Source: Naegleria gruberi | Taxonomy: Eukaryota | Length of the DNA: 64,000 nucleotides | Direction: 5' to 3' (one strand) | NCBI GenBank assembly: GCA_000004985.1 | Contig: GG738892.1 | Part shown: positions 7,692 through 59,817 of the stretch, in pieces | Layout of the letters: every line of letters begins with the position of its first letter | Numbering within the stretch: position 1 is the first letter of the stretch | The notes under the pieces: generated by a model | Databases searched by the model: none | Told to the model about the DNA's origin: nothing | What the model saw: the letters and a program-made list of their open reading frames with translations, nothing else | Made by a program: the position numbers and the translations under genes

Positions 7692-7764
7692 CGCCCACCG
7701 TGGGGGTCGAACCCACGACCACAAGGTTAAGAGCCTTGCGCTCTACCGACTGAGCTAGACGGGC
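7692..7764 (-). tRNA. tRNA-Lys (anticodon CUU)
   Basis: Reverse complement folds as a cloverleaf: acceptor GCCCGTC/GGTGGGC (two G-U pairs), D-arm GCTCAGTCGGTAGAGC, anticodon stem CAAGG/CCTTG with loop CTCTTAA, T-arm GTGGGTTCGACCCCAC, discriminator G; 73 nt, no intron, CCA not encoded. Confidence 0.9.
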
Positions 7765-38600: not shown

Positions 38601-38956
38601 ATTAAATCAGTCAATATAATTCCTCCAAACAAGTAGGCATCCTCAGTATTGAAATATTGTGAACGTTCGGGAATGACTTGAATTTGTATGGAAATCACAT
38701 CACGGGATGGATTTTCTATATCGAGTGTGGTAGAAATAGAGGTTGTATTGGTTTTTAATTGATCGGCAGAAAAACTTTGTTTATGTTGTAGGTGTCGTGA
38801 GGTGTAGATGGAAATTTCCACTTGAGTGGGAGAATAGAGTTGAGTATTGATGGTGTTGAGAAGGTTGGAATCAAATTCCTTGATGCTCGTAGAGATGTTG
38901 ATGAACCCGAGCTGTAGTTCCAGGCTTGTATTTGCTGCCTGTGTTTGTGTGAGCAT
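32684..38956 (-). CDS. giant (~2090 aa) multidomain protein: large uncharacterised N-terminal/central region, ankyrin repeats, C-terminal Ser/Thr protein kinase domain; join(38956..32904, 32837..32684), 66-nt in-frame intron 32838..32903 (GTATGT..TTCAG)
   Basis: Kinase subdomains present: GEGGFGIIFEC, AIKTI, HRDIKPQNIFI, DFGIAK, GSLCYISPE. Ankyrin-like repeats sit upstream (..GANVNALRKGKD.., ..TPLTFAVETNQQELAFILVEKGADVDV..). Pro-rich linkers (PPPPPTLF, PPPSPTNTPP). The intron is AT-rich and stop-free so the ORF track reads through it; removing it restores subdomain XI (..SEEQ-C-FQEMTKAI..). Confidence 0.8.
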   Translation of the reverse strand: MLTQTQAANTSLELQLGFINISTSIKEFDSNLLNTINTQLYSPTQVEISIYTSRHLQHKQSFSADQLKTNTTSISTTLDIENPSRDVISIQIQVIPERSQYFNTEDAYLFGGIILTDLISLMRDQPTVRKGIFLENMSQSSNVLQIPLICEISSFSAKPKDFGWSKESSGKSKLADFIRSTVYQAKNVQSQHFQQKQTVPNSSQSETNGRFKYLSASQNSKPNRQQVENFSNKIIKVNPFTSDQTPNFDSNMASPNSILQKKLIRYPTMEIKKTIIVSNYFHEFILNFIQRNLQGFKFYLKKQKDTTGLDIYEYNDKSFPNSGQESYFFSYQILQVLNHLLENNQKELFQLWIHAHDFFSSETEMKRENSSGNLSLAGSFASVFDNLEESPKSTPPPSPTNTPPSGSSNFSNGNNKRETNNNHYLNSKYISPDYLRNFLTNDPYVQTFVHNVTFLSSDMFPSVLHSHRGKTFKKLIEDESNELETFLNYVERLHENITSVYEKNHLYMRLSKVLNKQNFVKDVNLKEFLQQNSTDFEFLRYPDLDAIKSVKVLKFIDMLSEKSLEIISHDIRGTDLEPLEFKIADTLLKSSSAKYLKQILDETHDYESKIVSDPKFDRLFEVVPSLFEPFMLPMKTLMAIIDQTMIIFNHGIDAKVTGTYVLKNSTSITNDLMELKMFIKKSEAGSGLYFHNVRYVDYLAYVFSKNHNRLFEILKKTVLNLSKQFDWNRASSWIDSIMERYHGTFFMDIKKRFGFKDNQFSTFLYTIITVMKESMLTKHRQEEVKYLLELIPKELPEHVKNLPLRSVEKLDNPFDNKVIVYKRGIIPPVPIFNPLLIRPVKSKEPTAKRIIAGKMEVYSANQPYLIQYRNKTMDNELIDRNELYYLFLTTSIFIEKTNTDSSFKLISTATSTIKKEENTTTKQVEIPLPPPNINQPIDVKLFIKPTPLEKAIPPPPPPTLFSKASTPKSKSPIPLSKPKSNKMSLRVELEQKLKLFREEDDEEDPGQQTDNIVLGIIEKAVPLYSTFIMHNLPLKHLLSMGNVYMALSESIKRRFPTFNKWLPDKVIGRICLFTTPTSLFILSLVSKQFFVQSHSITWQKEIYSISPSFVGFPALVHMKVKCLIHKHRQNILTLRDCLHNSQNMYQLADLKYRLKGIGFEAMSSIFDNTNALINQLTYLYQEEKQFALIKYFYSYYKLIGALHYEVSKLSTYKLERDILKKICASHIVLICLSKETLPNVSNIPDLGSHPIAVTRNMLKTVSLKYPNVNICMVLSYFYNINETYCSKMFEYCRLWKNINDTILRYKENLLEVEKIFQKEKTSTDGLNKFTGKVNDLLNKTNKVDKSKLVEYENQIIKYLVKCGNYYRYYLTVYDKSGGMSLDEAMFVAIQLNQFEELKELISKGANVNALRKGKDIAAESLRTKNQEMIDYCHLTRIDNIQKSNEKLPVDMNLLLYAIDNKYWPVVEIIARKNKELCFESFRGLRPIDYCIVNSKYPGVELFINAMITDDKNFNVEVLSKACFIAIDYGMTSALKYLVQKEPELATRRTISDIRYQESHYSNPSLILYALRKRSTKSVVTLIEMFPKLLNARLNHGNEAEQAPAKSNSNGKTGLSQLINNGTPLTFAVETNQQELAFILVEKGADVDVKKNGMDLASVAETTENSDMIIWARKLLNKSETYLCYKFEVEYIDNMLNLYRKRFKMVVNYSESVQDFVKKTKLRCGIRGSYELQYYDPDFEEFVDVVDMKDLQLLDDELNLIKLKRVKNTVDSILPQRAGNGRYEQYLGMTLDDRYKIIRIIGEGGFGIIFECQVLNTPEEPNVAIKTIATGKNSIQKPTQDAENEANLVKQLDHQNVVKIYDTFQVDTEHSSMFCIVMELYKGDVMSIISESIKSATTIPLPIIWKIISQTTQALNYVHSQQVMHRDIKPQNIFIRRRDIDSNLIEVVLGDFGIAKENAHTTKNTYAGSLCYISPELLLNQPYGFATDMYSLGVTLYQLLTLDTSTSICSKLIHSEEQWYVSFSIFLINGLINYSNYYLFSFQEMTKAITDHYSNTHNQALLNKLLNIMTRLLKFLPQARLTAQQLVQEVT

Positions 38957-40728: not shown

Positions 40729-42555
40729 TTAAACAAAAATTTGTTGAAGGGCAGGTAATTTTCTAAGCATATTTCTAACTTGGTTACCATAGGGGTTTGG
40801 CCAGTATGCACAGAGCCATGTTAAATTTTTCAAAGCAAGTATGGATTTTGCTCCTTCATCAGTCATTCCAATGCCATTAATGTGGAGTTTTGTGAGACGA
40901 GTTAGTCGACTAATAGCCTTAACTCCTTCATCTCCAATTTCATAATCGCTGTAAATGCGCAGTTCAGTTAATTGGCTCATCTGACCAATATATTTAGCTC
41001 CTACAGTTCGAATATTATTAGCGCCAATCGAAAGAGCAGTTAAATTGGGTAATTGACTGATAAATCGAGCCCCTTCTGAACAAATATTATTATAGTCAAT
41101 CTTGAGAATTAGTAAATGTTTCATCTCGCTTATCTTTTCGGCACCTGTTGTTCCAATTTCGTTGTTTTCAATATCAAGTTCAGTTAAATGCTTTAACTCT
41201 GTAATTGATTGAATTCCAGTTTTGTTTATGGAATTTCGTGGGACAATTAATGATGTCAAATGTGTCATTTCACAGATTGATTTGAATTCATTTTGAGTAA
41301 AATTTTTCGAAATGTCAAGTTTTTTCAAATGTTTCATTCTTTCAAGTAAATTGGGATCCAAATAATAATTATAGTGTAGGTACAGTGATTTCAATTGATC
41401 TAATTTGGTGATGGAAACCAATCCATTCGTGGTAATTTTGTTATATCCTAAATTAAGGTATGTTAAATTTGTAATTTCACTACTTTCTACCATTACATTC
41501 TCAATTTGATTATATTGCATATCCAGAAAGGTTAATTGTTTCATTTTGATAATATACTCCGCACCAACATCACCAATTCTATTTCCATTAATGCAAAGTG
41601 CAGTTAATTTTTCAAGTCTACTAATATATAAGGCACCTTTAGCATGAATATGATTATTTCCAATGGAAAGGCATGTCAATTGTTTCATTTCAGCAACATT
41701 TTGTGCTCCTTTAGATCCGAGATTATTTCTATTAATATTGAGCGATTTTAAATATTGTAATTTTTCACTAATCGGCTTGCAAGAGGTAATACCACAACCA
41801 CTAACATTGAGATATATCAAATGATTTAAATTTTCTGCAATTTCCTCAATTCCCAAATCTCCAATTCTATTCTTTTTAATATTAAGATGTGTTAAATTTT
41901 TCATTTTACAAATTGATTCTACACTTTCAATTCTATTATTTCTAATATTCAACAATGTTAAACCTTTCAAATCACTCAACAATTCCAACCCTTCATCTTT
42001 TATATGATTATCCCCTAAATTTAATAATTCCAAATTTTTAAATTGAGATAGTATTTTAACTTGTTCATTTCCAATATCACTTGAAGCAATGTCCAATCTT
42101 TTCAAATGTTTCATTTTACAAATTGTATTCTCTACACTTTCGAATAAAGTTTCATTACCATGATCAACATGTCTTGATTGTTTGAAAAATTGCATAAATC
42201 GTAATCCAACAAGTTTTAAATTGAAAATACCCTCCATATGATGATGTTTCCAACTCGAATAAATCCAAACTCTATTAAAATAACCTTTTCTCATGACCAG
42301 GGAAAGTTTCGCCTTCTTGTTTGTAATCACCCGATCCCACTGTTGCGAAATTAATGTACAAACTGTTTTTACAAATTGATAATCAAGATATTGAACAATT
42401 TCTGAACAAATATCATCCGAAAACAATTCATCTAAACTTTGATAATATTAAAATGATTTTTATAAATTTTGCATGTAAATAGAGATATGTAAATATTACT
42501 TACCACTCGATAATCTAAATTTCAATGATTCCGATAATGATACTTGTTCTGGCAT
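40729..42555 (-). CDS. F-box-like / RNI-type leucine-rich-repeat protein; join(42555..42504, 42431..40729), 72-nt intron 42432..42503 (GTAAGT..TTTAG)
   Basis: About 17 tandem ~24-28-aa LRRs of ribonuclease-inhibitor type (L..L.I..N.IG..GA..I..). Short 5' exon (MPEQVSLSESLKFRLSS) splices in phase 1 to ..DELFSDDICSEIVQYLDYQFVKTVCTLISQQWDRVI (F-box-like), the same N-terminal motif as the paralogue at 49310. Confidence 0.75.
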
Positions 42556-44544: not shown

Positions 44545-44616
44545 CTCCCATGCCGGGAATTGAACCCGGACCTCCTGGGTGAAAGCCAGGTATCCTAGCC
44601 ATTGGACTACACGGGA
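44545..44616 (-). tRNA. tRNA-Glu (anticodon UUC)
   Basis: Reverse complement TCCCGTGTAGTCCAATGGCTAGGATACCTGGCTTTCACCCAGGAGGTCCGGGTTCAATTCCCGGCATGGGA(G) folds as cloverleaf: acceptor TCCCGTG/CATGGGA, anticodon stem CCTGG/CCAGG with loop CTTTCAC; 72 nt; T-rich flank downstream on the coding strand. Confidence 0.9.
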
Positions 44617-45937: not shown

Positions 45938-47202
45938 TTATTCCAAGTCACCTCTAATCTTTAAAATAATCTTTCCACTATTCTTATTTTGTTCCATATG
46001 TTCATGAGCTTGAATAACTTGATCCATATCAAAGACTGTATCAACATTGGCAACTAGTTTTTTAGTTTCAAAAGCATCCTTAATGTAATCTTTCAATTCT
46101 TGAACAAGTTGTTGCTTATAGAGAGGAGATCTATTTCTCAAAGTACTATATTGAATACGAATTCTCTTTCTCAACATTAATCCTAAATCAATAGTAGCGC
46201 TGGTTCCTCCCATTGATGCAATTCCAATAATAGTGGCATCTAATCTGGCAATTTGTACATCTTGTTCCAAATAGGTATTTCCACCAATTGGATCTAGAAT
46301 ATAATCAATGAGTGGTGTAACACCACTTTCAGAATCATTGGTCAAGATTTTTGAAAGTTTTTCACTCCACTTTGGATTTTCCTTATAATTTACATAATGA
46401 GTAGCTCCATATTGTTTACAAAATTCACCCTTCTCATCACTTCCACAAGTAACACAAATGTTCTTACACAATCCACTCAATTTACACAATTGAATCAATG
46501 CCAATCCAACACCACTTGCACCACCATGAATCAAAACATTGAGATTTCCCTCAACTTTTTCATGTAATCTTCCAATTTTGAAGAAACATTGAAATGCAGT
46601 CAGGAAAGCTTCTGGAATTGCAGCAGCTTCCTTCAATGAAATTCCATTACAATGAAACATTTGACTTGTAGTAGCAATAACATATTCAGAATATGCACCT
46701 CCTTCAACAAGACAATAAACGTAATCTCCAACTTTGAATTGACCATCAGTGGATGTTTCTTGTCCATTGGAAAACTTTTCAATAATACCCGAAACTTCTA
46801 ATCCAATAATTGGACTACTACCAGGTGGTGGTGGATACATTCCATTTCTTTGTACAATATCTAGATACACATTAAATACATTAAATAATTATTAAATATT
46901 GTGATTAATACATTAATTAATAATCGGAATACAACATCATCAATCAAACATTAGCCATTAATATATATTGATAAATATTACAATCATTTAATATATTTAA
47001 TATATTTAATAAAAAACATACCAGCACGATTCAAAGCAGCATAATAAACTTTAATCAAGGCTTGAGTATTACCAACTGCTGATTGTTGTTGTGATGGTGG
47101 TGGGGCAGAAAATTCAGGAATTGGATATTCATTATCAATGTATAAATCTTTGGCTGATTTGGTGATTGGTTGACGAACTTGAACAACTCGTTGATGACTC
47201 AT
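45938..47202 (-). CDS. zinc-type alcohol dehydrogenase-like / NADPH:quinone oxidoreductase (MDR superfamily); join(47202..47022, 46860..45938), 161-nt intron 46861..47021 (GTATGT..TCTAG)
   Basis: Exon 1 ..ALIKVYYAALNRAG; phase-1 splice gives -D-IVQRNGMYPPPPGSSPIIGLEVSG.., a GroES-like fold then Rossmann motif LIHGGASGVGLALIQL. Exon boundaries checked against ORF-track codon positions. Confidence 0.8.
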
Positions 47203-47683
47203 TTTTTTTAAATATACTTTACAATATTAAATACTATTGAATGTATAATACTTCTTTTAATTAAGTTCAATACTTGTCGAAATTTTTTCGATTTTGTCTT
47301 TGTTGAGTGATTATCTGGCTATTCCTTCTCAAGTTTCTGATAGCTCTGATTTTTCATCAGCTCCTTCAGATCCAATGTTAACCTTTGATGATGAAAATTC
47401 CATAATGTCATCTGTTAGTGCCTCTGAGAATGATCCATTACTTATCGACCAAACCTCAATATTCTCTGTCATTAGAGAAGAAGCTAGTAACAACTCTCAA
47501 GCAACTCCTCAAAAGAGATAATCTTGGTGTCGAGGTTTATCTTCAATTTTTAAAGTTTGCCTTAATTAAAATTTGTAAAGTTTTATTTAGAATCATTTTA
47601 AAGATGCCTTGGTGAAATTTGGGTGAAAGCAAGCTATTACTGTCCCAATCAGTCGTGTTAACAATTTTTTAATATTTCCCGAA

Positions 47684-47764
47684 GGTGTGTTGACCGAGTG
47701 GTTATGGTGCTGGCTTCAGGTGCCAGTGGGTAAAACCGCGTGGGTTCAAATCCCACACACATCA
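47684..47764 (+). tRNA. tRNA-Leu (anticodon CAG), type II with long variable arm
   Basis: GGTGTGT-TG-ACC-GAGTGGTTAT-GGT-G-CTGGC-TTCAGGT-GCCAG-[13-nt variable arm]-GTGGG-TTCAAAT-CCCAC-ACACATC-A. Discriminator A73 and U33 indicate Leu rather than Ser identity. An oligo-T tract follows. Confidence 0.85.
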
Positions 47765-47770
47765 GTTCAA

Positions 47771-47781
47771 ATTTTTTTTTC
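47771..47781 (+). terminator. oligo(T) RNA polymerase III terminator after tRNA-Leu
   Basis: Run of 9 T beginning 7 nt after the tRNA 3' end. Confidence 0.5.
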
Positions 47782-47804
47782 TTAGGGGAAATAATTCTAA
47801 AAAA

Positions 47805-48412
47805 ATGAAAGAACCCAAACTTAATGAATACATTACCGTTCCGTTGGTTTTTATTTGCTGTTCTTCCTCTTCAGAATCATCATCACCATTAAATTATTAT
47901 TTTCTTGAAAAGGAATTTAATGGAAAGAGAAATGATCATGTTTCGTATGCTATTTGTTTGAGAAAGAGATTATATTTTTGGGAAGATGAATTTGATCAGG
48001 GAATGATAATTAATATGAAAGTGCAATTGATAAAACTATTAACCATCCAGCAGCATGATTATGGAAAATTTGAAAAGTTTAATTTTGAGGAATTAACATT
48101 GAAATGAAATTTGAAAGAGTTGATTTCAAATTTAGTAAGCCAATGTTTAATGAACATTCCAGCACTAATGGTGGAGCCAGGAAGGAAATTGATTATTATT
48201 GTGGAGTTAGGGCATTTAGAATTACAATTGAATTGGATCAGATGGATATTAGCAAGTCAATTGTGAAAAGTCGTGAAATTAACTCTATATTTGAAATTGA
48301 ATACAATCCATTTTGTGATATGAATCACGTTGTGGATGAACCATTTCTACAACATGACATGTGCATGAATTTAATTGTAGACGCTGATGTGAGAATTCGA
48401 AACAAAGATTAA
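47805..48412 (+). CDS. hypothetical protein, represented by two abutting ORFs in different frames (47805..48107 and 48104..48412)
   Basis: ORFs of 100 and 102 aa overlap by 4 nt (..ttg aaa tga / atg aaa ..) with no intron possible; either a frameshifted single gene or two tiny genes; no known domains. Confidence 0.25.
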
Positions 48413-48438
48413 TTGGAAATCCTGTTAAAATTCCTCCA

Positions 48439-49209
48439 ATGCCATTCGATTCCTTACTTCTCCATGCAACAATTCTCTCAAGATTGGATGAATCCAACGA
48501 AAAAGTTCTAATGATTCACTATCGTGATACTGCTAAAAAGTATCGTCATCTTGTGAGAAGAATTTCATTCGAAGATAATAATGGGAAACTTGTTGGAAAA
48601 TTGGGAAAGTGTGAATTGCTTAATTATTTCAAACATTTCAATGAAAAAGTGAGAATTATTTCACATTGTAGAGTCAGTGAAACATGCTACCTTTACAAAA
48701 TTGTTTCAAATCATGATTGTGATACACAATTACATTTCAAATCGGTTAAAGAATTTTCAAAGCATACTCAATGGATCTTAATTGATCTGGAAAGCCGTAT
48801 TGTTAGTGAAATTGAACCATATTATGCTAAACTCCTTCCTTCAAGTATTCCAAATGAGTCAATTGCAATTGATGAGGATGGATTCATCCAAAAACCAAAA
48901 CGAAAAAAGTATTTCGCCATTAGAAATAGAAAGGAGCAACACATTTCGACTGTGGGTTTTTGTGACTTTGCAAGAATCAGTCTTTCCTCCTTTACTCCAT
49001 TCCCCTATTCCTCTTCGAATTCATCACTGGTTAATGTACTTTGTACTGTGATGGTTACTGAGACGACAACTCGTCACAAGAAATTCACGAATGAGAATTC
49101 TGTTGTTTTCATTAATTATCAATTCAAACTTTTGAAAGGAGGATGGAAGGATTTGTTTGAAAAAACAAAAGACAGATCGCTTGTGGATATTGAAATTAGA
49201 TTTAGATAA
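48439..49209 (+). CDS. hypothetical protein (256 aa)
   Basis: ATG-initiated ORF on the same strand directly after the previous one; may be a further exon or domain of the same locus; no recognisable motif. Confidence 0.3.
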   Translation: MPFDSLLLHATILSRLDESNEKVLMIHYRDTAKKYRHLVRRISFEDNNGKLVGKLGKCELLNYFKHFNEKVRIISHCRVSETCYLYKIVSNHDCDTQLHFKSVKEFSKHTQWILIDLESRIVSEIEPYYAKLLPSSIPNESIAIDEDGFIQKPKRKKYFAIRNRKEQHISTVGFCDFARISLSSFTPFPYSSSNSSLVNVLCTVMVTETTTRHKKFTNENSVVFINYQFKLLKGGWKDLFEKTKDRSLVDIEIRFR

Positions 49210-49309
49210 TCTTTGTCTACAACCATCCATCACTTTGATTTAAATGTCAAAATAGTTTACAACACAAAATTTCAAGTGATGAACTTTGTGTCAAGAACAA
49301 CCTAAAAAA

Positions 49310-50524
49310 ATGCATCAACAAGATAAATACACCACCCCTTCAACGTTGCTAGAGAAATCCAATGCTGTATTTTCGGATGATATTTGTTATGAAATATTGT
49401 CATTTCTTGACCATAATTTCAAATCTTCATCACTTTGGAATTATGCATCAATTTCAAAACAATTTATGAAAATAATTGGAGGACGATTGGAATTGAACAT
49501 GTACTATTCAGAAATGACTTCTCAAAAGATTGAGTTAATGAGGAGAAGTATCCTGTCTCAAAATGTTGTGAGTTTGAGAACTGAAAGAGTTTCGGATTTT
49601 CCAAAATTTTGCACAATTCTTAAAAGCATGAATCAATTGAGGAGAGTTGAAATTTGTGGTCATCACTTGAAAGGAGCAACAATTAAACCATTGACCATGT
49701 TGAAACAAGTTACAGATCTTGTACTAAATGAGAATGGAATTAGTGAACTGGGTGTGATTTACATTTCTGGAATGATTCAATTAAAATCTCTCGATATTAG
49801 GAATAATGAAATTAATGTTGAGAGTGCCAAATATATCACTCAACTGCGTAAACTACAATCTTTGAGTGTTTCAGTTCGTAACAATGAAGTTCTGACATTA
49901 ATAGGTGGAATGAAAAATTTGACTCGATTGAGGATTGATAGAAATAACATAGGACATGATGGAGCCAAAATAATCAGTAGAATGAAGCAATTGACCAGTC
50001 TGCATATTTCCAATAATTCACTGCTATCTGAAGGAGCAAAATTGATAAGTAGTATGAAGAAACTAACCGAATTGGTCATTACCAACAATAATATTGGAAT
50101 AATGGGAACCTTTTATATTAGTGAGCTGAAAGAATTAACCAAACTTTGTATTGGTTTTAATTGTATTGGAGATGAAGGAGCCAAACATATTAGTGGGTTG
50201 AAAAAGTTGGTTGACCTTAATGTCACTTGGAATGAGATTGGCCTTGCTGGTGCCAAGTCAATTGGAGAATTGAGAAATTTAACTCATCTTTCTGCGGGTG
50301 AGAATGATATTCCAGCAGAAGGAGCTAAAGCAATAAGTCAATTAAGGAATTTGACCTATCTTGATATTGTAGGCAATCCAATAGGTGATGAAGGAGGTTT
50401 AGCAATTAGTGAATTGACAAAATTGACTACACTCTTCATTGGCGTCTATTCCTTGAGTAATTGCTCAATTGACCAACTCAAGAAAATGAAGCAGTTAAGA
50501 GTATCAGATCTTCTTGATGATTAG
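49310..50524 (+). CDS. F-box-like / RNI-type leucine-rich-repeat protein (paralogue of 40729..42555)
   Basis: Track ORF starts on TTG at 49286, and the first ATG is at 49310. N-terminus ..SNAVFSDDICYEILSFLDHNF (the same F-box-like motif as the paralogue), then ~11 RNI-type LRRs (..LDIRNNEINVESAKYITQL.., ..LRIDRNNIGHDGAKIISRM..). Confidence 0.75.
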   Translation: MHQQDKYTTPSTLLEKSNAVFSDDICYEILSFLDHNFKSSSLWNYASISKQFMKIIGGRLELNMYYSEMTSQKIELMRRSILSQNVVSLRTERVSDFPKFCTILKSMNQLRRVEICGHHLKGATIKPLTMLKQVTDLVLNENGISELGVIYISGMIQLKSLDIRNNEINVESAKYITQLRKLQSLSVSVRNNEVLTLIGGMKNLTRLRIDRNNIGHDGAKIISRMKQLTSLHISNNSLLSEGAKLISSMKKLTELVITNNNIGIMGTFYISELKELTKLCIGFNCIGDEGAKHISGLKKLVDLNVTWNEIGLAGAKSIGELRNLTHLSAGENDIPAEGAKAISQLRNLTYLDIVGNPIGDEGGLAISELTKLTTLFIGVYSLSNCSIDQLKKMKQLRVSDLLDD

Positions 50525-50582
50525 TTTCATTGAGATTTCATTTGAATCGAATAATTATAATTTATTTAATTATTAAAAAAAA

Positions 50583-52229
50583 ATGAAAAGACAATATGAT
50601 ATGATTAATACTTGTTCTTCTGATCAAGATGAAGATGATGATTGTACAGAAACTTGTTCTTCCGAAGATGAACAATATGAACTTGCTTTAAAATATTTTA
50701 ATGGGACTAATGTTGAAACAAATTATTCTAAAGCTTTCGACTTGTTTTTGAAGAGTGCGGAACAGGGAAAGACAGAATCACAACATCAAATTGGCTATTT
50801 TTATCATTGTGGATTGGTGGTGGAGAAGGATTTATCTAAAGCAATGGAATGGTATCTGAAAGCTGCCGAAAAGGGATTTTCAGAATCACAATTTTCAATC
50901 GGAATTTTGTTTTATAAAGGAGTTGAAGTGGAGTATTCGAAAGCTATGGAATGGTTTTTGAAAGCAGCTGAAAATGGTCTTTCGAAAGCTCAGTGTAATC
51001 TTGCTGCTTTATATGAAAATGGATGGGGAGTTGAACAAGATTATTCGAAAGCTATGGAATGGTATTTAAAATCTGCTGAACAGGAAAATTCAATAGCTCA
51101 ATGTAATATTGGAAATATATTTGCAAATGGAAAGGGAGTTGACCAAGATTATTCTAAAGCATTCGAATGGTATCTGAAAGCTGCTAAAAATGGTGATTTA
51201 ACTGCTCAATCATTTGTTGCATCATCATTTGCAACTGGAAGAGGGGTCAAAAAAGATTATTCTAAAGCATTCGAATGGTATTCAAAAGCAGCTGAAAATG
51301 ATTATTCTCATTCAGTCTACAGTATTGTAAATGGAAAAGGAACAGACAGTGATGCAAAATTCAATCTAGCTTATTTATACGAAACTGGATCAGGTGTTCA
51401 AAAGAACATCCTGAAAGCATTCGAATGGTATATGAAAGCAGCTCAAGATGGTCATCTAAATGCACAATTTTCCATTGCAGGATTTTATAGAGATGGATTG
51501 GTAGTTCAACAAAATTTTTCAAAGGCAGTAGTATGGTATTTGATAGCTGCTGAAAATGGTCATATGGACGCACAGTTCAATGCTGGTTATGCTTTTGAAA
51601 ATGGTTTAGGAGTTCCACAAGATTATTCGAAAGCTATGGAATTATATTCTAAAGCTGCTGAACAGGGGAGTGCACGTGCTGAATGTAATATTGGAAATAT
51701 GTATTTGTATGGGAGAGGTGTTGAAATAGATTATTCGAAAGCTGAGGAACATTTATTGAAGGCCTCTGAAAGAGGTGATGCATTATCACAAGTTAATGTT
51801 GCATATTATTACATGAATGGAGTATTCGATAGAGATTACACCAAAGCATTCAAATACTTTCTTGAGGCTGCTAAAAATGGTGAGCTAACCGCCCAGAATA
51901 ATGTTGCAAAATTATTCGAATTGGGCCTAGGAACTGAGAAAAATTTGAAACAAGCTCTATTTTGGAATTCAAAAAAATTGAATGATAGTTGCAGTTTTCA
52001 ATTTATTGAGGATCCGTATGACCAATTTGCTTTAAAAACTTTCAGACCAGTAATAGACAGCGAGATGAGTTTAATTACAGATTCGAATGAGATGGTGATT
52101 ATTCGATTTGAAACTAGAGATTTTACAATCTTGAAAAACAAGGTGATCACAAGCAAATACTTGACAACAATGATGAATTCTAATTGGATTGGTTTCAATT
52201 CGAAAGGAGAATGGTCAACTTGTACTTGA
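50583..52229 (+). CDS. Sel1-repeat (SLR) protein, ~12 tandem Sel1 repeats
   Basis: Repeated 36-aa units of the form ..DYSKAMEWYLKAAEQG...AQ.NLG..YENG.GV.QD; the C-terminus leaves the repeats and begins a BTB-like segment that continues in another frame (see 52189..52650). Confidence 0.8.
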   Translation: MKRQYDMINTCSSDQDEDDDCTETCSSEDEQYELALKYFNGTNVETNYSKAFDLFLKSAEQGKTESQHQIGYFYHCGLVVEKDLSKAMEWYLKAAEKGFSESQFSIGILFYKGVEVEYSKAMEWFLKAAENGLSKAQCNLAALYENGWGVEQDYSKAMEWYLKSAEQENSIAQCNIGNIFANGKGVDQDYSKAFEWYLKAAKNGDLTAQSFVASSFATGRGVKKDYSKAFEWYSKAAENDYSHSVYSIVNGKGTDSDAKFNLAYLYETGSGVQKNILKAFEWYMKAAQDGHLNAQFSIAGFYRDGLVVQQNFSKAVVWYLIAAENGHMDAQFNAGYAFENGLGVPQDYSKAMELYSKAAEQGSARAECNIGNMYLYGRGVEIDYSKAEEHLLKASERGDALSQVNVAYYYMNGVFDRDYTKAFKYFLEAAKNGELTAQNNVAKLFELGLGTEKNLKQALFWNSKKLNDSCSFQFIEDPYDQFALKTFRPVIDSEMSLITDSNEMVIIRFETRDFTILKNKVITSKYLTTMMNSNWIGFNSKGEWSTCT

Positions 52230-52650
52230 TTTACAAACTATTGAACATGAAATATTTCAGAGAAATGTCAATCACATTGAAATATTTGAGAAATATGTTG
52301 AATACTTGACAAATGATACGATACCATCTAATTTTGATACTAAAATGGAATTAATTGAATTATCAAGATATTTACAGGACGATTCATGTATTTTTAAAAT
52401 TGTGAAATATTCTGACGTTTTGACAAGATTTTACATTTCATTTTATTTTGACAAAACGGAACAGCTTGACATTCCAATAGTTAGTTGTTATATAATGGAT
52501 ACTACATTCAACACGTGCGATATTTCACCTCATGCAATTGAGAAATTATTGACAGGACCTGATTTATCACCAATTGCCAAGAGGAAGATTTTAGATCTAG
52601 TTCCATTAAATAATTTGGGAACCAATTCGACAATATTCGAAGGTAAGTAA
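52189..52650 (+). CDS. BTB/POZ-like segment, probable C-terminal continuation of the Sel1 gene in a shifted frame
   Basis: ..MVIIRFETRDFTILKNKVITSKYLTTMMNSNW (end of the Sel1 ORF) and ..KENGQLVLDLQTIEHEIFQRNVNHIEIFEKYVEYLTND (this ORF) together resemble one BTB fold. The two frames overlap by ~40 nt with no room for an intron. Confidence 0.35.
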   Translation: MVSIRKENGQLVLDLQTIEHEIFQRNVNHIEIFEKYVEYLTNDTIPSNFDTKMELIELSRYLQDDSCIFKIVKYSDVLTRFYISFYFDKTEQLDIPIVSCYIMDTTFNTCDISPHAIEKLLTGPDLSPIAKRKILDLVPLNNLGTNSTIFEGK

Positions 52651-53049
52651 TCGAATCAAATTTAATTACCAACCAGCTCGATAGATAACAATACAATTCA
52701 CACAATTTTTTCACCAATTGAAGTTAAAAAGGAAATTAGAATTGATACGAAATCAATTATTCTAGAATTAGAAATCGAAGAAACTGGAATGATAATCAAA
52801 AGCGATGATTTGAGTAATTCCCAGATTTACATTCAATTAAATAATGATAATGATCACGTTGGGTTTTGGTTATTGGTCAATCCTGGAAAAACTATTTTGA
52901 AATTACCAAAATATGATTTTGACACAATTGATATGATTATTATTCCAACCGTAACTGCAATACTGGACCAAGAAAATTGAATCACATCTTGCAAGATAAC
53001 AAGCAAGTCTTGATAGAACCATTGAAATGGCAAATAAAAAAATTTGAAC

Positions 53050-53130
53050 TGATGTGTGTGGGATTTGAACCCACGCGGTTTTACCCACTGGCACCTGAAG
53101 CCAGCACCATAACCACTCGGTCAACACACC
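53050..53130 (-). tRNA. tRNA-Leu (anticodon CAG), second copy in inverted orientation
   Basis: Exact reverse complement of the 47684..47764 gene over all 81 nt; ~45 nt of 5' flank and the oligo-T 3' flank are also similar between copies. Confidence 0.85.
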
Positions 53131-53291
53131 TTCGGATATTATTAAAAAATTTTGAATACGACTGATGGCGACACCTTCACTTTAAATTACTGTGCGGCGT
53201 GCATTGATTCTATTAAATATATCTATGGTAATGTGAAAAATCATAATCCAAAAATTAATTTACTATTTCATAACTACAGCTAAATATTAAT

Positions 53292-56200
53292 TTATTTAAA
53301 AACTGAAACTCTGTTGTTAGTCTCCTCACAAATATACAATTCTCCTGTGTGATGATCGACATCAAAACCAGTTGGTGAAAATAATTGACCGTGCTTACTT
53401 CCCTTCTCACCAAATCTCTTGACAATTCTCAAACAACGAGTCTTTCCATTTCTTGGTCCAAGTCTATCAATTAACAAATCATCATAACTTTCAAATTGTC
53501 CCAATTCATCCTTACTCTCCACAAAATTACAATCCTCATAGACATTGATTCGATGCCAATTATGAACTGACAAGTACAAGTATCCTGTAGATCTTTCAAA
53601 ATAAATATAATTGGTGGCCCATTCAATTTCTGGTGAAACACTTAGACTTCTCATATCATGAATTAATTCTCCTTCCCTTGTAAAGACCTTAATGGAACCA
53701 CTTGTAAAATCATAGGCCATTAAATGACCATCATTATTAAAGTCAACTCCCCAACCAGAATTAATTTCCTTAATGGTTCCAATAGTTCTGAGAATTTTAC
53801 CATCATGACTAATAACAGCAATTCTATTATTACACATGTCAGTAACGTAGACATCACTAGTCTCTGGATCGACAGTGAGACATGTTGGAGTAGAAATTTC
53901 ATCTGGATAATCTCCTGCAGATCCTCTTCCTGCTTGCCAAACTTGAACTTTTCCATCCCATGTATATTTGCTGTTTGTGTTGGCATTTCAATTAATTGTA
54001 ATGTAGCAGTAAATGCAATCAATTGTAAGAAAAATAAATAATACATACTAAACCTTATTAGTTGAAGTTCCTGATACAAGCAAAGTCTTATCATTGTAGT
54101 CAAATGCAATAGATCTACTTCCACCTGGAACTGAAAAGTGATACAAATATTTTTTAGTAGCACAATCAAAAACTTGAATTCTACCATTCAAATAATCTGA
54201 AACAAATGCTTGTCTTGTCATGGCATTAATTTTCACATCGTGTGGCAAGCTAAAAAGGCCAGGATCTCTTTGATGTCTAGAGTAATTTCCATACTTGTCT
54301 CCAAGCTTTCCAACATATTCAATCTTTCCAAATAGGCTGAATGTCTTTCTCTTGAAAACCGGTTGAGCAAGAGCTGAGGATTTGGTTGAGTTTGGAGGGG
54401 GCAATTCTTTAAGACCAGTATGGAATTTGGTCTTGTTTGACTTGTTGTGGAGAGTCAAGTGAAGTTCACAGAAATAGGCATCACAATCAGAGCAGTGATG
54501 AGTGGCATTGGTTTTTTCCTCTGCTTCATCAAAACATTTGGTACAATGAGGTACAGAACTTTCCTTCTTCAATTCTACCAAATCATCAACATGGAATTTG
54601 GTCTTGTTTGCCTTATTGTGTAGTGTCAAGTGTTCTTCACAAAAGTGGAGAGCACATGTCTTACAAAAGTGAGTAGCTTGCGTTTGTTCTTCATCATCGA
54701 GACACTTGTCACAGAATCGTTCGCCACTTGAGGAATCATTTGTTTCGGCAAGTGGAATCTTGGTTTCAACTGTTTCAATCAAATTTCCTCTCAAATATAA
54801 ATTAGTAGTGATTAATACATCTTTTCCATCGCCAGCTTGTTCCAACTCAATTGGAATGGATTTTTCATACTTTCCATTTTCTGGAATTAATTGAACTTGT
54901 TCTTCAAATGTTTTTGTGACAAATCTTGTGTCAAATGTAATGACATAGTGTACAGGGTTCGGAGTATACTTTCCATATGGAATTCCAGAAGCATTATTCA
55001 AGGTAATTTTCAATGTTGCTGCCTTTCCTGGTCTGAGAGCAGTTGGATCTTGAGAGATGGATTCAATACTGACAGGATATTGAACCTTAAAAGTTTTTGG
55101 AAGGGTTGAATTGTTAAATGTCTTTCCAAGAAGAGTTGCTTGTGAAATGATGGTAATTTCAGATTCCAAGCCACTACTACCATTCTCTCCTACAGTACCA
55201 TGAAAATCGTGTGGAACGACAATTTCCTCTTGAGGAGCAAGACTTGTATTCAATGTAAAACTTTCCTGACCAGCATTTGGAAGGAATTTGAATTTAGAGC
55301 TAGCCAAACTGGTAAAGCTAATCACTACTCCACTTGGGCATGTCAATTTTCCTTCATTCTTAATTTTGAGACCTGTAATCATGACAGCTTCACCTGGTTC
55401 AATAATTCCATCATTGGTGTTTACATCAGTTGTTTTCAATTCAAAATCTGAAACAACCAAATCATACATTTCACTTGCTTGCTCTAAAACCTGTCCAGTT
55501 TTAGAATCTACAATTACAAACTTCTTAACTCCTGATTGACCAGATTTTGATCCAGGTTCGCCAGCCTTGCCTTCCTGACCAGACTTACCACGATCTCCCT
55601 TTTGGCCATCCTTTCCTTTTTCTCCTGCCTTCTTTCCAGCACCATTTAGTGAGCTAGGATCTCCTCCTGAACCAGCATGTCCACGAGAACCTCCCAAACC
55701 AGCTGATCCAGCTCTACCTTGTTCACCTCCCATACCAGACATTCCTCCTCTACATTCAACTTGTAAAAAGATGAGATATTCTGGGTGGGATGTAGTTACA
55801 ATGACTTGATTGGTTGCATCTCCTCCATTAGCTCCATTTCCACCACTTTAGTTATTATTATTAAATTAGAAATTATTAGAAATAATTTAACAAATAATGG
55901 AAGATGAAAAAACTTACTCTCCACCATTACCTGAATGTCCACCATTTCCTCCTCTGCCACCATTTCCACCATTACCACCACTTCCTCCACTTTCACCTTT
56001 TCCTCCCTTTCCACCATTGCCACCTGATTCATTCAGAGAAGTGAAAAGTAGGGTCAGTACAACTCAATGAAATAGGATAATTAGAAACTTACCACTACCA
56101 CCTTCGCCTCCTGCTCCTCCGTCACCACCTCTACCACCATTTCCTCCATCACCTCCATTAGCTCTGAAAATCAACACGGATTCAGAAGCATCTTTAATAT

Positions 56201-56719
56201 CCAACAAGACACTTTCATTTGCAATATTTGATGACATGTTAAACTTTAACAAATTATCACTCTGGGATTCGATTGTAATTTGCACACTGGTGTGAGGACA
56301 CGATTTACCATCACTAGCATGACTGCCATTCAATCCATCAGTACCATTTCCTCCATTTCCTTTTGTGATTTCACAGAATTCCATAAGATGATGAATTTAA
56401 TGTCAACATATATATATTGAAATCATGTGCAATGATAACAAACCTCCAGAATCACCATCATCTCCTCTACCACCTCCACTCTTTCCCAAATGACCCGATC
56501 TTCCACTCTAAATTTGTTTCAACAACATATTAATATTTACATTTGATCATCAATCATATGATCAACAATACATTAAAATTTCCTTAAATACTATTGTGTG
56601 ATAGAATTACAAACCTCTCCTTTTGATCCTTTTTGTCCAGCTTGACCATCTGAACCATCCGAACCAACCTCACCACTCCAATCAATTATTTTAATCGAAT
56701 CAGTACATGAAGTGGCCAT
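53292..56719 (-). CDS. collagen-like / B-box zinc-finger / NHL-repeat protein, six exons: join(56719..56615, 56507..56444, 56359..56093, 56023..55918, 55845..54049, 53970..53292); introns 107, 84, 69, 72 and 78 nt
   Basis: Exons 1-4 and the start of exon 5 encode Gly-rich (GGX)n and G-X-Y runs (GSDGSDGQAGQKGSKGE / SGRSGHLGKSGGGRGDDGDSG / ..NGGDGGNGGRGGDGGAGGEGGSG / GNGGKGGKGESGGSGGNGGNGGRGG.. / ..AGEKGKDGQKGDRGKSGQEGKAGEPGSKSGQSG) interleaved with short beta-like segments. Exon 5 continues with a ~330-aa spacer and two B-box-type zinc fingers (CDKCLDDEEQTQATHFCKTCALHFCEEHLTLHNK.., CTKCFDEAEEKTNATHHCSDCDAYFCELHLTLHNK..). The exon 5-6 splice (tta|GTATGT..AACAG|c) continues the NHL propeller (..YKYTWDGKVQVWQ..NNRIAVISHDGKIL..NNRVSVFK). 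All donors are GTAAGT, GTATGT or GTTTGT, acceptors are YAG, and phases are consistent. Exon 3, 5 and 6 boundaries were checked against ORF-track codon positions; exons 1, 2 and 4 may be off by 1 nt. Confidence 0.7.
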
Positions 56720-57010
56720 TTTGTTTTTTGCTAAATTCGACTTGTAAAACATTATTCAATATTTATGCTCAATCAAACATGAAAGAACTTGCTAGGAAAT
56801 TGCAAATAACCGAATTGGAACACTAATAGTAAGGAGCGCCAATCAAGGTAAAAAATTCGTTGTGGGGGCGATTAAACATAATATTGTTGTCTAAGGCTAA
56901 AATGCGCGTTTTTGATTGTTATCGTGAGAAAATTTTGTACCAACATCGGATCAAGCCTTTTTAATTTTTTCAAAACTTGAAAAAAACAAATCAAAGACTA
57001 AGAGAGCAAA
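56720..57010. promoter_or_regulatory. divergent (bidirectional) promoter region between two B-box/NHL paralogues
   Basis: 291-bp AT-rich interval between the ATG of the minus-strand gene (56719) and the ATG of the plus-strand gene (57011); no ORF. Confidence 0.3.
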
Positions 57011-58480
57011 ATGCCACCAAAATTCTGCGCCAAATGTCTCGATGAAGAGGAAGAAGTTGCAGCAACTCATCACTGTCCAACATGTGATCTGTTAATGTGT
57101 GAGGTCCATTTGATGTTACACAATAAGGTGGCCAAGACTAAAGGACATGCTGCCGATGTGGTGGAAGTTAAAGAGGAAGAGGAAGAAAAGAAACAAATAA
57201 TGTGTCAAATGTGTATGGAAGATGATGAGGAAACAGCTGCCTTGTACTTTTGTCCTATTTGCAAGTTGAATATCTGTGAACTTCATTTGAATTTGCATAA
57301 CAAGATGAGCAAGACAAAGGGTCACGAAAAGGAGATCAAGATATTGGGAGAGGACGGATTGAGTACTTGTGCTCATTGTCAAGCTCATTGTCCTGATGAT
57401 TTTGTTGATGCTGTCTTTGCCTGTAGAGAATGTAAAACTAATTTGTGTTATCATCATGCTAAAATTCACACTCTTGCTTGTAATCATGCCAAAAATCCAA
57501 AACCTCAAGGTGAAGGATGTTCCCAACTCGATACCAACTCGTTCCGTCTATTGGCCGATAACAAGTTTAAACAATTTGCAGGAGATTTTGAATTTGTTGG
57601 ATTTTTGGGATCAAGTAATGAAGCTCAGGATGAATTTTTCTTGAAAGGAAGTGAAGGAAAGCAACCTCAACAATTCAAAAAACCAAATGGATTGAAAATT
57701 AACATTTATACAAAGGAAATATTTGTTTGTGACTCTCAAAATTGTAGAATTCAAGTTTTTGATTTGACCACAAGAGCATTCAAACGTGAAATGAAGTTTT
57801 TCAGCTTTTCACCACTTCATCTTGATTTTGATCTTTCAGATGACACTATGATCATTAGTGGTGATAATCAAACAGTTGCCAAGTACACAATGGATGGTAG
57901 AACTTTAATTTGGGAATATGGTAAACCAAACAATTATACTGCAACCGATGAGACATTTGGTAATTGTCGTGGTATTGTTGTAGATAATGAAGGGGATGGA
58001 AATGTTTACATTGCCGAGTGGAATAACGATAGAGTGAAGGTATTGACAAGAGATGGCAAGTTTGTCAAACACTTTATTGAAAAGCAATTATGGACTGCTC
58101 CTCAAGGATTGGCTATTAGAAATGGAAATTTACTAGTCAATTCTCGTTGTTATGGTCAAGGACAAGTTGCTGAATTGAGTCTTCCTGATGGAGAATTTAT
58201 TAAGAGTTATGGTAAAAAGCAAGACCTGGATCCTGAACTCCAAGATTCATGCTACATGTGTGTTGAACGATTTTCAGGAAATATTGTCATTGCGGATACT
58301 GACGATTCGTGGACCTCTCCAATTAAATTCATCAAGGGTCAAAGTTTACTCAAACTTGAAAAACCAAGAGGGCAAGGAAAGTTACATTTCAGTGCCCCAA
58401 CTGGCATTGACATTGATCCTTACACTGGTTTATTGTATGTATGCGATCGTGAAAATAATCGTGTTCAAATATTGAAATAA
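57011..58480 (+). CDS. B-box zinc-finger (x3) + NHL-repeat beta-propeller protein
   Basis: N-terminus has three B-box-like modules (CAKCLDEEEEVAATHHCPTCDLLMCEVHLMLHNK.., CQMCMEDDEETAALYFCPICKLNICELHLNLHNK.., CAHCQAHCPDDFVDAVFACRECKTNLCYHHAKIH). C-terminal ~270 aa carry NHL blades (..QNCRIQVFD.., ..NVYIAEWNNDRVKVL.., ..LYVCDRENNRVQILK). Single exon. Confidence 0.75.
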   Translation: MPPKFCAKCLDEEEEVAATHHCPTCDLLMCEVHLMLHNKVAKTKGHAADVVEVKEEEEEKKQIMCQMCMEDDEETAALYFCPICKLNICELHLNLHNKMSKTKGHEKEIKILGEDGLSTCAHCQAHCPDDFVDAVFACRECKTNLCYHHAKIHTLACNHAKNPKPQGEGCSQLDTNSFRLLADNKFKQFAGDFEFVGFLGSSNEAQDEFFLKGSEGKQPQQFKKPNGLKINIYTKEIFVCDSQNCRIQVFDLTTRAFKREMKFFSFSPLHLDFDLSDDTMIISGDNQTVAKYTMDGRTLIWEYGKPNNYTATDETFGNCRGIVVDNEGDGNVYIAEWNNDRVKVLTRDGKFVKHFIEKQLWTAPQGLAIRNGNLLVNSRCYGQGQVAELSLPDGEFIKSYGKKQDLDPELQDSCYMCVERFSGNIVIADTDDSWTSPIKFIKGQSLLKLEKPRGQGKLHFSAPTGIDIDPYTGLLYVCDRENNRVQILK

Positions 58481-58578
58481 ATTTGGTAGCTCTGTAAATT
58501 GTATATTATTAATCCAATTACAAAATCTTATTAAAATAATAATTTGTCAAGTTATTAAATACAAAATGAATTGGCAAT

Positions 58579-59817
58579 TTATTTATAAATAACAACCTTA
58601 TCTTCATCACAATTGACATACAAATAGCCATTAGTTGGGTCAATATCCATACCATATGGTCTGAATGGTCTTTCTCCTAATTGAGTTGAGCAACCAGTTG
58701 CTGTAGCCATTAATACTTTGCCATCTTTTTCAGTTAACTCGTAGAGAGTCAATTTCTTAGAGGACGGTTCAGACATGATCAAGTTGCCAGTACACTTTTC
58801 TACTATACAATAAATTGGAGGATTACAGAATGCATTCAGGGTGGAATTCTCATATCCAAAAACCTTATTAACAAATACTCCATCCTTTGTAAATAATTGA
58901 ACTCCTCTCTTGTGATATGTCTTGTTGCAATAGACAAGTAAATTCTTATTGTCGGCTGTCAACCCAATACAGTAAGGATCGTAAATTTCAGCAATGTCGC
59001 TTCCAATCTCTCCCTTCATTGTTCTTAAATATTGACCTGCACTGGAGAAGACTTGAATTCTTGAATTGAAACAATCAGCAACAAATACAGAACCATCCAA
59101 AGGATCGACCACACAAGTAGTATGATCAGAGAATCTGTCATTACTTTCACCTCTTGATTGATCAAATTTCCACACAACTTCACCACTCTCAACTTTAATT
59201 TTGTAAATATTACAACCACAACACAAGATCATTGCTTCATCATTATCACACAAGCACATCCAACGAGCAGTGGAAGGAGCCTTGATCGTTCTCTTTGGCT
59301 CTCTAGTCTTGCTATCAAAAACAGCAATCATACTATATTCATAAGACATGTAAATCTCTTGATTCTTGGCACTCACTTTAACATCAAATGATTTTCTAGT
59401 GCCAAGAGTTTGTTTTTCAATTTCCAAAGTACCAACAAGTGTGAAATTTCCACTAAATGGAACATCACCTCCCTTTCCAATCACTCTAATTTCTGGAGTG
59501 TGTGATTTACTCAGAGTTGAAATCTTGTGCAACTCGACATGATTTTTACATAAATTTAATTTACATTCATGACAATGATGACTAGCCTTCAAACATGTAT
59601 CCAACAATTTCTTCTCCTTCATTTCCAAACACTCATCACACATGTAAACAGGTTTTGAATTAATATCAATCACTTGATCCGCATGCCCGGAAGTCTTCTT
59701 TGCAGCATTATGAAGCTCCAAATGACTCTCACAAAAATAGAGAGCACATTGTGGGCAGTGATGAGAGGCTGGTGTTGTCTCCTCCACTTGTTTACACTTA
59801 TCGCAACATTGAACCAT
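58579..59817 (-). CDS. B-box zinc-finger + NHL-repeat beta-propeller protein (third paralogue)
   Basis: CDKCKQVEETTPASHHCPQCALYFCESHLELHN.., CDECLEMKEKKLLDTCLKASHHCHECKLNLCKNHVELHK.., then NHL blades (..FNSRIQVFS.., ..YLYVNCDEDKVVIYK). ATG start and single exon; convergent with the 57011 gene. Confidence 0.75.
   Translation of the reverse strand: MVQCCDKCKQVEETTPASHHCPQCALYFCESHLELHNAAKKTSGHADQVIDINSKPVYMCDECLEMKEKKLLDTCLKASHHCHECKLNLCKNHVELHKISTLSKSHTPEIRVIGKGGDVPFSGNFTLVGTLEIEKQTLGTRKSFDVKVSAKNQEIYMSYEYSMIAVFDSKTREPKRTIKAPSTARWMCLCDNDEAMILCCGCNIYKIKVESGEVVWKFDQSRGESNDRFSDHTTCVVDPLDGSVFVADCFNSRIQVFSSAGQYLRTMKGEIGSDIAEIYDPYCIGLTADNKNLLVYCNKTYHKRGVQLFTKDGVFVNKVFGYENSTLNAFCNPPIYCIVEKCTGNLIMSEPSSKKLTLYELTEKDGKVLMATATGCSTQLGERPFRPYGMDIDPTNGYLYVNCDEDKVVIYK

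Follow-up and report, generated by a model that had tools for sequence, protein, structure and literature searches.

Two identical tRNA-Leu(CAG) genes in opposite orientation on a Naegleria gruberi chromosome: a probable local inverted duplicate of an ordinary kind

Introduction

Multi-copy nuclear tRNA genes of eukaryotes carry internal A and B boxes and an oligo-T terminator and encode no CCA, and the copies have an identical coding sequence between diverged flanks. The eukaryotic consensus reads TRGCNNAGTGG for the A box and GGTTCGANTCC for the B box, and TATA-like upstream elements are known in tRNA genes of plants and Schizosaccharomyces pombe. For the amoeboflagellate Naegleria gruberi, 924 tDNAs were reported in 41 Mb, together with 12 adjacent pairs of the same isotype, 4 of which are antiparallel (Bermudez-Santana et al. 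2010, PMC2888827). Pairs of tRNA genes have also been connected with rearrangements, since according to PMC7990762, Kellis et al. (2003) found every inversion between species of Saccharomyces sensu stricto to be flanked by oppositely oriented tRNA genes. In prokaryotes, tRNA-linked genomic islands and phages consist of accessory genes at a tRNA gene that is accompanied by a direct partial repeat.

Here, we analysed two tRNA-Leu(CAG) genes in a 64,000-nt stretch of N. gruberi DNA (the window). The pair has the box, terminator and CCA features of multi-copy nuclear tRNA genes as well as their identical coding sequences and diverged flanks. It also belongs with the antiparallel pairs of the same isotype that the N. 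gruberi survey describes, but its members lie 5.3 kb apart, which is presumably wider than the adjacency applied there. The cut-off used by Bermudez-Santana and co-workers in 2010 was reportedly about 1 kb. A further difference, here from dispersed tRNA copies, is the similarity of the two genes over about 43 nt upstream, which exceeds what is usual for such copies and is what one would expect of genes related through local duplication. As in yeast, genes for the same isoacceptor stand in opposite orientation at both ends of a segment; however, inversion in yeast was demonstrated by comparison of species, whereas the Naegleria pair is known from one arrangement. With prokaryotic islands the locus shares a tRNA gene at the edge of an accessory-looking gene block, but it is eukaryotic and comprises two complete inverted genes without an integrase.

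Results

The window comes from the nuclear genome of the eukaryote N. gruberi: 6 of 10 window ORFs matched NAEGRDRAFT predicted proteins exactly, all on one contig of 342,059 bp, and the product of a neighbouring quinone oxidoreductase gene shared 75% identity with its counterpart in N. fowleri. The window is AT-rich, with dense ORFs that include LRR, Sel1 and collagen-like genes. A giant virus or a bacterium was for this reason considered as its source, and rejected on the strength of the exact N. gruberi protein matches and of orthologues in Naegleria and Willaertia. An N. gruberi-like contig from ENA (2.3 kb, 99% identical) ends about 0.85 kb before the second of the two tRNA genes.

Two independent callers, ARAGORN and Rfam (RF00005), agreed on a tRNA-Leu(CAG) gene at 47684..47764 on the plus strand (copy A) and another at 53050..53130 on the minus strand (copy B), with an Rfam score of 55.2 bits for each copy versus a gathering score of 29. 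The copies are identical at all 81 of their 81 nucleotides, so that the preliminary description of two identical 81-nt genes in opposite orientation was reproduced down to the coordinates. The encoded tRNA has the long variable arm of class II and discriminator A73, and its predicted fold fits a cloverleaf with a variable-arm hairpin. The A box (TGACCGAGTGG) occupies positions 8-18 and the B box (GGTTCAAATCC) lies in the T arm; each agrees with the eukaryotic consensus at 10 of 11 positions. CCA is encoded at neither copy, where GTT comes next after the 3' end. The 3' trailer reads GTTCAAA followed by T9 in copy A (47765..47780, plus strand) and GTTCAAA followed by T7, then ATTT, in copy B (53036..53049, minus strand); the T-run starts 8 nt past the tRNA 3' end in both and, as read from the sequence, is of the Pol III terminator type. 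The window contains four tRNA genes, the two Leu genes, a tRNA-Lys and a tRNA-Glu gene, and each is followed by an oligo-T run.

Similarity between the copies reaches beyond the genes. A repeat search detected two inverted arms of 138 nt (47641-47778 and 53036-53173) that are 94% complementary, separated by about 5.3 kb and together form the longest inverted repeat of the whole window. When the flanks were aligned with the tRNA start as register, 35 of 43 positions were identical upstream of the gene (-43 to -1; 47641..47683 on the plus strand for copy A, 53131..53173 on the minus strand for copy B) and 14 of 14 in the trailer (GTTCAAA plus T7), on either side of the 81/81 match. The chance of at least 35 identities among 43 upstream positions is about 3e-13 to 8e-13. 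Just outside the arms, identity drops to about 27%, which is random, giving a sharp edge at -43, and downstream the similarity ends with the oligo-T run that occupies nt 8-14 after the tRNA. A core of about 100 bp, from -5 to the T-run, is perfectly identical, and the divergence between the copies amounts to 8 upstream positions plus the T-run. Conservation of some 45 nt of upstream flank and of the oligo-T flank had been noted before, and the alignment puts figures to it; the repeated unit comes to 138 nt and is larger than the tRNA itself.

The upstream block of copy A contains ATCAGTCGT at -36..-28, the A/T-rich stretch AATTTTTTAATA at -21..-10 and CCGAA at -5..-1. The combined motif ATCAGTCGT..AATTTTTTAATA occurs at two sites in the window, one at each Leu gene, with 0 expected from shuffled sequence. 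None of the Leu upstream motifs was found upstream of the tRNA-Lys and tRNA-Glu genes of the same window, and no motif was common to all four genes. The leaders of the two copies can be told apart by sequence (TTTCCCGAA versus ATATCCGAA). Exact-pattern scans (37-mer and 22-mer) of metagenome contigs gave 0 matches to the tRNA with its flanks, and 0 matches were likewise obtained in viral contigs and in prokaryotic genome contigs. We also searched positions 46800-53900 against Rfam (E<=1) for a small RNA gene beside the tRNAs, a search modelled on the tRNA-companion snRNA genes of trypanosomatids. It returned no credible match except the tRNAs; two further matches were at chance level, far below the gathering score.

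All genes between the copies lie on the plus strand, and most of the immediate neighbours outside lie on the minus strand. Following copy A, within the interval and outside the repeat, are three consecutive ORFs without Pfam domains (47805..49209, plus strand), the third of which is the N. gruberi predicted protein NAEGRDRAFT_71721 (48439..49209, plus strand). They are followed by an LRR protein gene (49286..50524, plus strand; Pfam LRR_6/LRR_8) and by a Sel1-repeat gene (50583..52650, plus strand) with 11 repeats and a C-terminal extension in another frame. The Sel1 repeats (Pfam PF08238, E = 1.8e-107, n=11) span 50583..52229, and the frame changes near 52143-52206 through either a frameshift or a 64-nt intron. 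A protein database search with the C-terminal region of this gene returned no homologues. Pfam supported the LRR and Sel1 labels that had been given to these two genes, but the accompanying F-box and BTB labels were not supported: no F-box family matched the N-terminal 130 aa encoded at 49286..50524 at E<=5, leaving LRR families as the only matches of this gene, and at the same threshold no Pfam family, BTB (PF00651) included, matched the joined C-terminal 234 aa of the Sel1 gene.

Expanded gene families are also present beyond the pair. An LRR paralogue lies at 40729..42426 on the minus strand (BLASTP, 31-41% identity to 49286..50524), and three B-box/NHL paralogues are clustered at 53292..59817, both outside the interval, which speaks against the proposal that the tRNA genes mark the boundary of an inserted or duplicated set of such families. 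A larger inverted segmental duplication between 40.7-43.9 kb and 47.8-50.5 kb was considered and rejected, as the LRR genes are paralogous and the adjoining ORFs are unrelated. The intervening 5.3 kb are chromosomal sequence of an ordinary, gene-dense kind and not the cargo of a mobile element. The tRNA pair sets no functional limits on the interval, and the genes in between form no special block.

Discussion

The two genes are probably functional nuclear copies of tRNA-Leu(CAG), built as Pol III type 2 units, that originated by local inverted duplication and whose tRNA was kept by selection. Judged by its sequence features, each copy would be transcribed by RNA polymerase III as a type 2 unit complete in itself. 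TFIIIC would recognise the A and B boxes within the gene and position TFIIIB over the approximately 40 nt upstream of it, termination would take place in the T7-T9 run, which starts 8 nt beyond the mature 3' end, and CCA would be added after transcription. The pair itself may go back to an old event in which about 140 bp were copied locally in inverted orientation or, alternatively, to the duplication of a larger segment of which the constrained 140 bp or so alone are still recognisable. Since then, purifying selection, possibly with gene conversion, would have held the 81 RNA-coding nucleotides identical, and the upstream 43 nt would have diverged at their 8 positions.

The proximity of the copies favours local duplication. 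CTG is the rarest Leu codon in this DNA (6.7%), which suggests that the tRNA-Leu(CAG) family is small, and if the family has no more than 20 members, chance alone would place a second one within 5.4 kb with P<=0.005. With regard to the extent of the original unit, the neutral decay of a larger duplication is expected to be gradual, but the edge at -43 is abrupt, and this points either to a unit of about 140 bp or to selection on the upstream block. On a protist nuclear chromosome, as opposed to a virus or bacterium, tRNA genes that are duplicated and end in T-run terminators are nothing unusual. In a nuclear genome with about 900 tRNA genes, the pair is therefore best seen as an ordinary local duplicate and not as a special element.

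Next to local duplication, a different source of the flank similarity has to be weighed. The block from -43 to -1 might be an extragenic promoter element of this isoacceptor or subfamily, common to many or all Naegleria tRNA-Leu(CAG) genes, a reading that we consider unlikely. The flanks would then be alike through function and not through nearby copying, which seems to us unlikely to the same degree. The upstream conservation does look blocky, with ATCAGTCGT, AATTTTTTAATA and CCGAA intact and the mismatches in between, and it stops about where TFIIIB contact is expected and, downstream, exactly at the terminator. However, with n=8 mismatches the blocky pattern cannot be told apart statistically from random scatter, the tRNA-Lys and tRNA-Glu genes of the same window lack the motifs, and the closeness of the two Leu copies is itself improbable by chance. 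Compared as they are at this pair, the similar flanks may nevertheless belong to a family-wide conserved element instead of being the trace of a local duplication. The TATA-like elements of plants and S. pombe resemble the A/T-rich block AATTTTTTAATA, which also lies just upstream of the gene and within a conserved stretch, but the Leu block, at -21..-10 relative to the mature 5' end, is nearer to the gene and is missing from the tRNA-Lys and tRNA-Glu genes of the window. We found no description of Pol III upstream elements in Heterolobosea. It is conceivable, though distinctly unlikely, that the 43-nt block (ATCAGTCGT ... AATTTTTTAATA ... CCGAA) serves heterolobosean tRNA genes as an undescribed extragenic Pol III promoter element and is conserved throughout the Leu(CAG) family or, as a non-exclusive alternative, that the pair drives a polymorphism among Naegleria strains in the orientation of the fast-evolving LRR/Sel1 block.

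Such rearrangement was also envisaged in the preliminary description, which took the inverted tRNA pair as a plausible substrate for inversion. In principle it could be one, given about 100 bp of perfect identity (from -5 to the T-run) inside the 138-bp inverted repeat and the precedent of tRNA-flanked inversions between Saccharomyces species related in PMC7990762. That the pair has acted or still acts as a recombination substrate, so that the 5.3-kb block would be reversed against its ancestral order or would vary in orientation among strains, nonetheless appears quite improbable to us. The block genes all lie on the plus strand between neighbours that are mostly on the minus strand, but gene orientation by itself is no evidence of inversion, and 100 bp of homology is little for efficient recombination. 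Nor is there synteny with the corresponding loci of N. fowleri, ENA Naegleria and Willaertia: around the oxidoreductase gene, these have the oxidoreductase alone in common with the window, and no tRNA-Leu gene was found nearby.

Two further readings are very improbable. It is hardly credible that the 138-bp arms are the TIRs of a DNA transposon or composite element with LRR and Sel1 cargo, or that they belong to an element integrated at a tRNA gene. Inverted repeats around 5.3 kb provide the geometry and nothing else. The outer ends lack a target-site duplication (...ATTAC|TGTCCC versus ...GGCGACA|CCTTC), with no direct repeat shared by the outer flanks ...GCTATTAC| and |CCTTCACTT, and the Pfam search of the interval ORFs revealed no transposase or integrase domain; the missing target-site duplication and transposase led us to reject the transposon reading. 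Each arm carries an entire, functional-looking tRNA gene in inverted orientation and not a partial att-like copy, no att-like direct repeat of the 3' part of the tRNA was detected, no further copies of the element exist in the window, and the host is a eukaryote. The earlier appeal to tRNA genes as integration hotspots thus falls away, as such ideas are not applicable to a protist nuclear chromosome. An assembly artefact that represents a single tRNA gene twice is just as implausible, for it has nothing in its favour except the identity of the 81-nt gene, and the 8 upstream differences and the unequal T-runs argue against it, as does the unique sequence with different neighbouring genes on both sides of each arm.

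The main value of the analysis is that it corrects the frame in which the two Leu genes are seen and places them among pairs of a known, ordinary kind. Two diverged copies that share a sharply bounded block up to -43 offer a cheap candidate for a Pol III upstream element. Should the block between the copies be oriented differently among strains, this would be a case of tRNA-mediated inversion outside yeast and would extend the phenomenon to Discoba.

Two tRNA-Leu(CAG) genes form an inverted repeat

Across the 64-kb window, ARAGORN called four tRNA genes: tRNA-Lys(CTT) at 7692..7764 (-), tRNA-Glu(TTC) at 44545..44616 (-) and two tRNA-Leu(CAG) genes, copy A at 47684..47764 (+) and copy B at 53050..53130 (-). 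Both Leu genes were also recovered by the Rfam tRNA model (55.2 bits each versus a gathering score of 29). They are 81 nt long, identical in sequence (81/81), and a repeat search located them in the arms of a 138-nt inverted repeat (47641-47778 and 53036-53173, 94% complementary), the longest such repeat in the window. In an alignment registered on the tRNA start, the copies agreed at 35 of the 43 positions of the upstream block (-43 to -1; probability of at least 35/43 about 1e-12 given base composition) and at all 14 positions of the trailer, GTTCAAA plus the first seven T, while identity was about 27%, that is random, just outside both repeat edges. Since tRNA calls, repeat arms and flank identity agree, the preliminary description was correct in its account of the repeat and its coordinates.

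The copies carry the features of eukaryotic class II, RNA polymerase III-transcribed tRNA genes. Both have the acceptor stem GGTGTGT/ACACATC with one G-U pair, discriminator A73 and a 13-nt variable region predicted to form a hairpin. The A box (TGACCGAGTGG) and the B box (GGTTCAAATCC), as read from the sequence, each match the textbook consensus at 10 of 11 positions, and the 3' CCA is encoded in neither copy. T-runs begin 8 nt past the 3' end (nine T in copy A, seven in copy B) and are also found closely downstream of tRNA-Lys and tRNA-Glu. The upstream block has nothing in common with the regions upstream of those two genes, and its motif was found nowhere else in the window, where shuffles expect zero occurrences. 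Rfam searches of 46800-53900 (E<=1) gave no credible match to other RNA families beside either Leu copy; two chance-level matches inside ORFs between the copies were far under the gathering score.

Source genome and origin of the pair

Six of ten window ORFs matched N. gruberi predicted proteins exactly, all on one 342,059-bp contig; among these six is a 256-aa ORF between the copies, which corresponds to NAEGRDRAFT_71721. The ORF adjoining copy A (45938..46870, -) encodes a zinc-type quinone oxidoreductase with protein relatives in Naegleria fowleri (75% identity) and Willaertia magna (59%). On the strength of these relatives and the exact matches, we assign the window to the nuclear genome of a heterolobosean, a free-living amoeboflagellate, and to neither virus nor bacterium. 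GC content is ~34% along the window, with no compositional break between the copies.

A survey of eukaryotic tRNA gene organisation put the N. gruberi complement at 924 tDNAs (883 tRNA genes plus 41 pseudogenes) across 41 Mb, with 77 adjacent tDNA pairs versus about 39 expected at random and 12 same-isotype pairs, 4 of them antiparallel (PMC2888827 and additional file 2). That this genome has identical tRNA genes in multiple copies, some of them as antiparallel pairs, is therefore already described. The window is locally tRNA-rich, its four genes in 64 kb comparing with about 1.4 expected at that density.

CTG is the rarest leucine codon among the window ORFs (6.7%), which hints at a small Leu(CAG) gene family. 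In families of up to 20 copies, a second member would fall within 5.4 kb of any one copy by chance with a computed probability of no more than 0.5%. This low chance of proximity, together with the flanks common to both copies, favours local duplication. With 8 of the 43 upstream positions differing, the Jukes-Cantor divergence is about 0.21 substitutions per site, and the duplication is therefore not recent, unless the upstream block is under constraint. Given the abrupt edge at -43, either ~140 bp alone may have been copied, or a larger duplicate may have decayed outside its functionally constrained part. Going by general properties of TFIIIB and TFIIIC, the stretch from ~40 nt upstream through the terminator is roughly the footprint of the Pol III machinery. 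An assembly artefact representing one tRNA gene twice is unlikely: eight upstream positions and the T-run distinguish the arms, and each arm is surrounded by unique sequence and has its own neighbouring genes.

The enclosed segment and its surroundings

Between the copies lie three ORFs without Pfam domains (47805..49209), a leucine-rich repeat (LRR) gene assigned by Pfam (49286..50524, +) and a gene with 11 Sel1 repeats (50583..52229, +) that continues in another frame to 52650. The LRR and Sel1 types initially proposed thus hold. The accompanying F-box and BTB labels were not borne out: at E<=5, Pfam detected no F-box in the N-terminus of the LRR protein and no domain, BTB included, in the C-terminal region of the Sel1 protein with its +1-frame continuation. 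That C-terminal region had no homologues in the protein database. The Sel1 ORF overlaps the +1-frame ORF (52189..52650) that extends the protein; the frame change, in 52143..52230 (+), is explained either by a frameshift of 1 nt or by a 64-nt GT..AG intron spanning 52143-52206.

Paralogues occur on both sides of the tRNA pair. An LRR gene at 40729..42426 (-) shares 31-41% identity with the enclosed one, and three B-box zinc-finger/NHL-repeat paralogues form a local cluster close outside copy B (53292..55742, -; 57011..58480, +; 58579..59817, -). This contradicts the earlier suggestion that the pair bounds inserted expanded-family genes. The enclosed segment is ordinary chromosome. Locally expanding families abound in this region, where the tRNA pair is another of several local duplicates. 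A larger inverted segmental duplication around the two LRR genes was ruled out, since their adjoining ORFs are mutually unrelated. Both LRR paralogues, oppositely oriented, have an N-terminal FSDDIC.EI..LD that is F-box-like by eye and escapes detection by Pfam.

The B-box/NHL gene next to copy B also encodes a Gly-rich collagen-like N-terminus and DUF7932. It is broken by two in-frame stops (TAG 54050-54048, TGA 53990-53988). The NHL part resumes beyond them without a change of frame, and no canonical GT..AG intron that would keep the frame was found at the stops (53988..54050). The TAG also terminates gene call P0131 (559 aa) on a 99%-identical ENA metagenome contig. The gene is either split or a pseudogene, or contains an unusual intron. 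Elsewhere, long runs of repeats with a 9-nt period at 55569..56700 (-) give several short ORFs a collagen-like Gly-X-Y sequence, and 32684..38956 (-) is an uninterrupted 2090-aa ORF that combines ankyrin repeats with a protein kinase domain at its C-terminus.

Recombination between the copies

Recombination between the arms is possible, because they share ~100 bp without any mismatch. In Saccharomyces, every interspecies inversion was flanked by oppositely oriented tRNA genes, according to the summary of Kellis et al. 2003 in PMC7990762. As a recombination or integration landmark the pair is only weakly supported. Pfam detected no transposase or integrase domain, and the sequences flanking the repeat show no target-site duplication. 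No further copy of the repeat was present within the window.

Loci from N. fowleri (around the oxidoreductase orthologue), an ENA Naegleria contig and Willaertia each have just the oxidoreductase gene in common with the window; they carry no tRNA-Leu gene and are otherwise non-syntenic. Around the oxidoreductase (45938..47202, -), gene order differs between N. gruberi and N. fowleri, with this sole common gene within ±10 kb; the order oxidoreductase-ASCH-L7Ae is common to N. fowleri and the ENA Naegleria contig. Pattern scans for the tRNA-Leu sequence in metagenome, viral and prokaryotic collections gave zero matches. The metagenome contig sharing the TAG stop (ERZ929261, run ERR1078381, project PRJEB11402) ends before reaching copy B; it encodes a protein with 99% identity to the B-box/DUF7932 protein of N. 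gruberi, which indicates that an N. gruberi-like organism is present in the sample. Inversion between copies A and B is a reasonable yet unsupported possibility.

The explanation is mundane: the pair arose by duplication of a nuclear Pol III tRNA gene, and hundreds of tRNA genes are present in this genome. One loose end is the upstream block reaching to -43, a possible family-wide promoter element.
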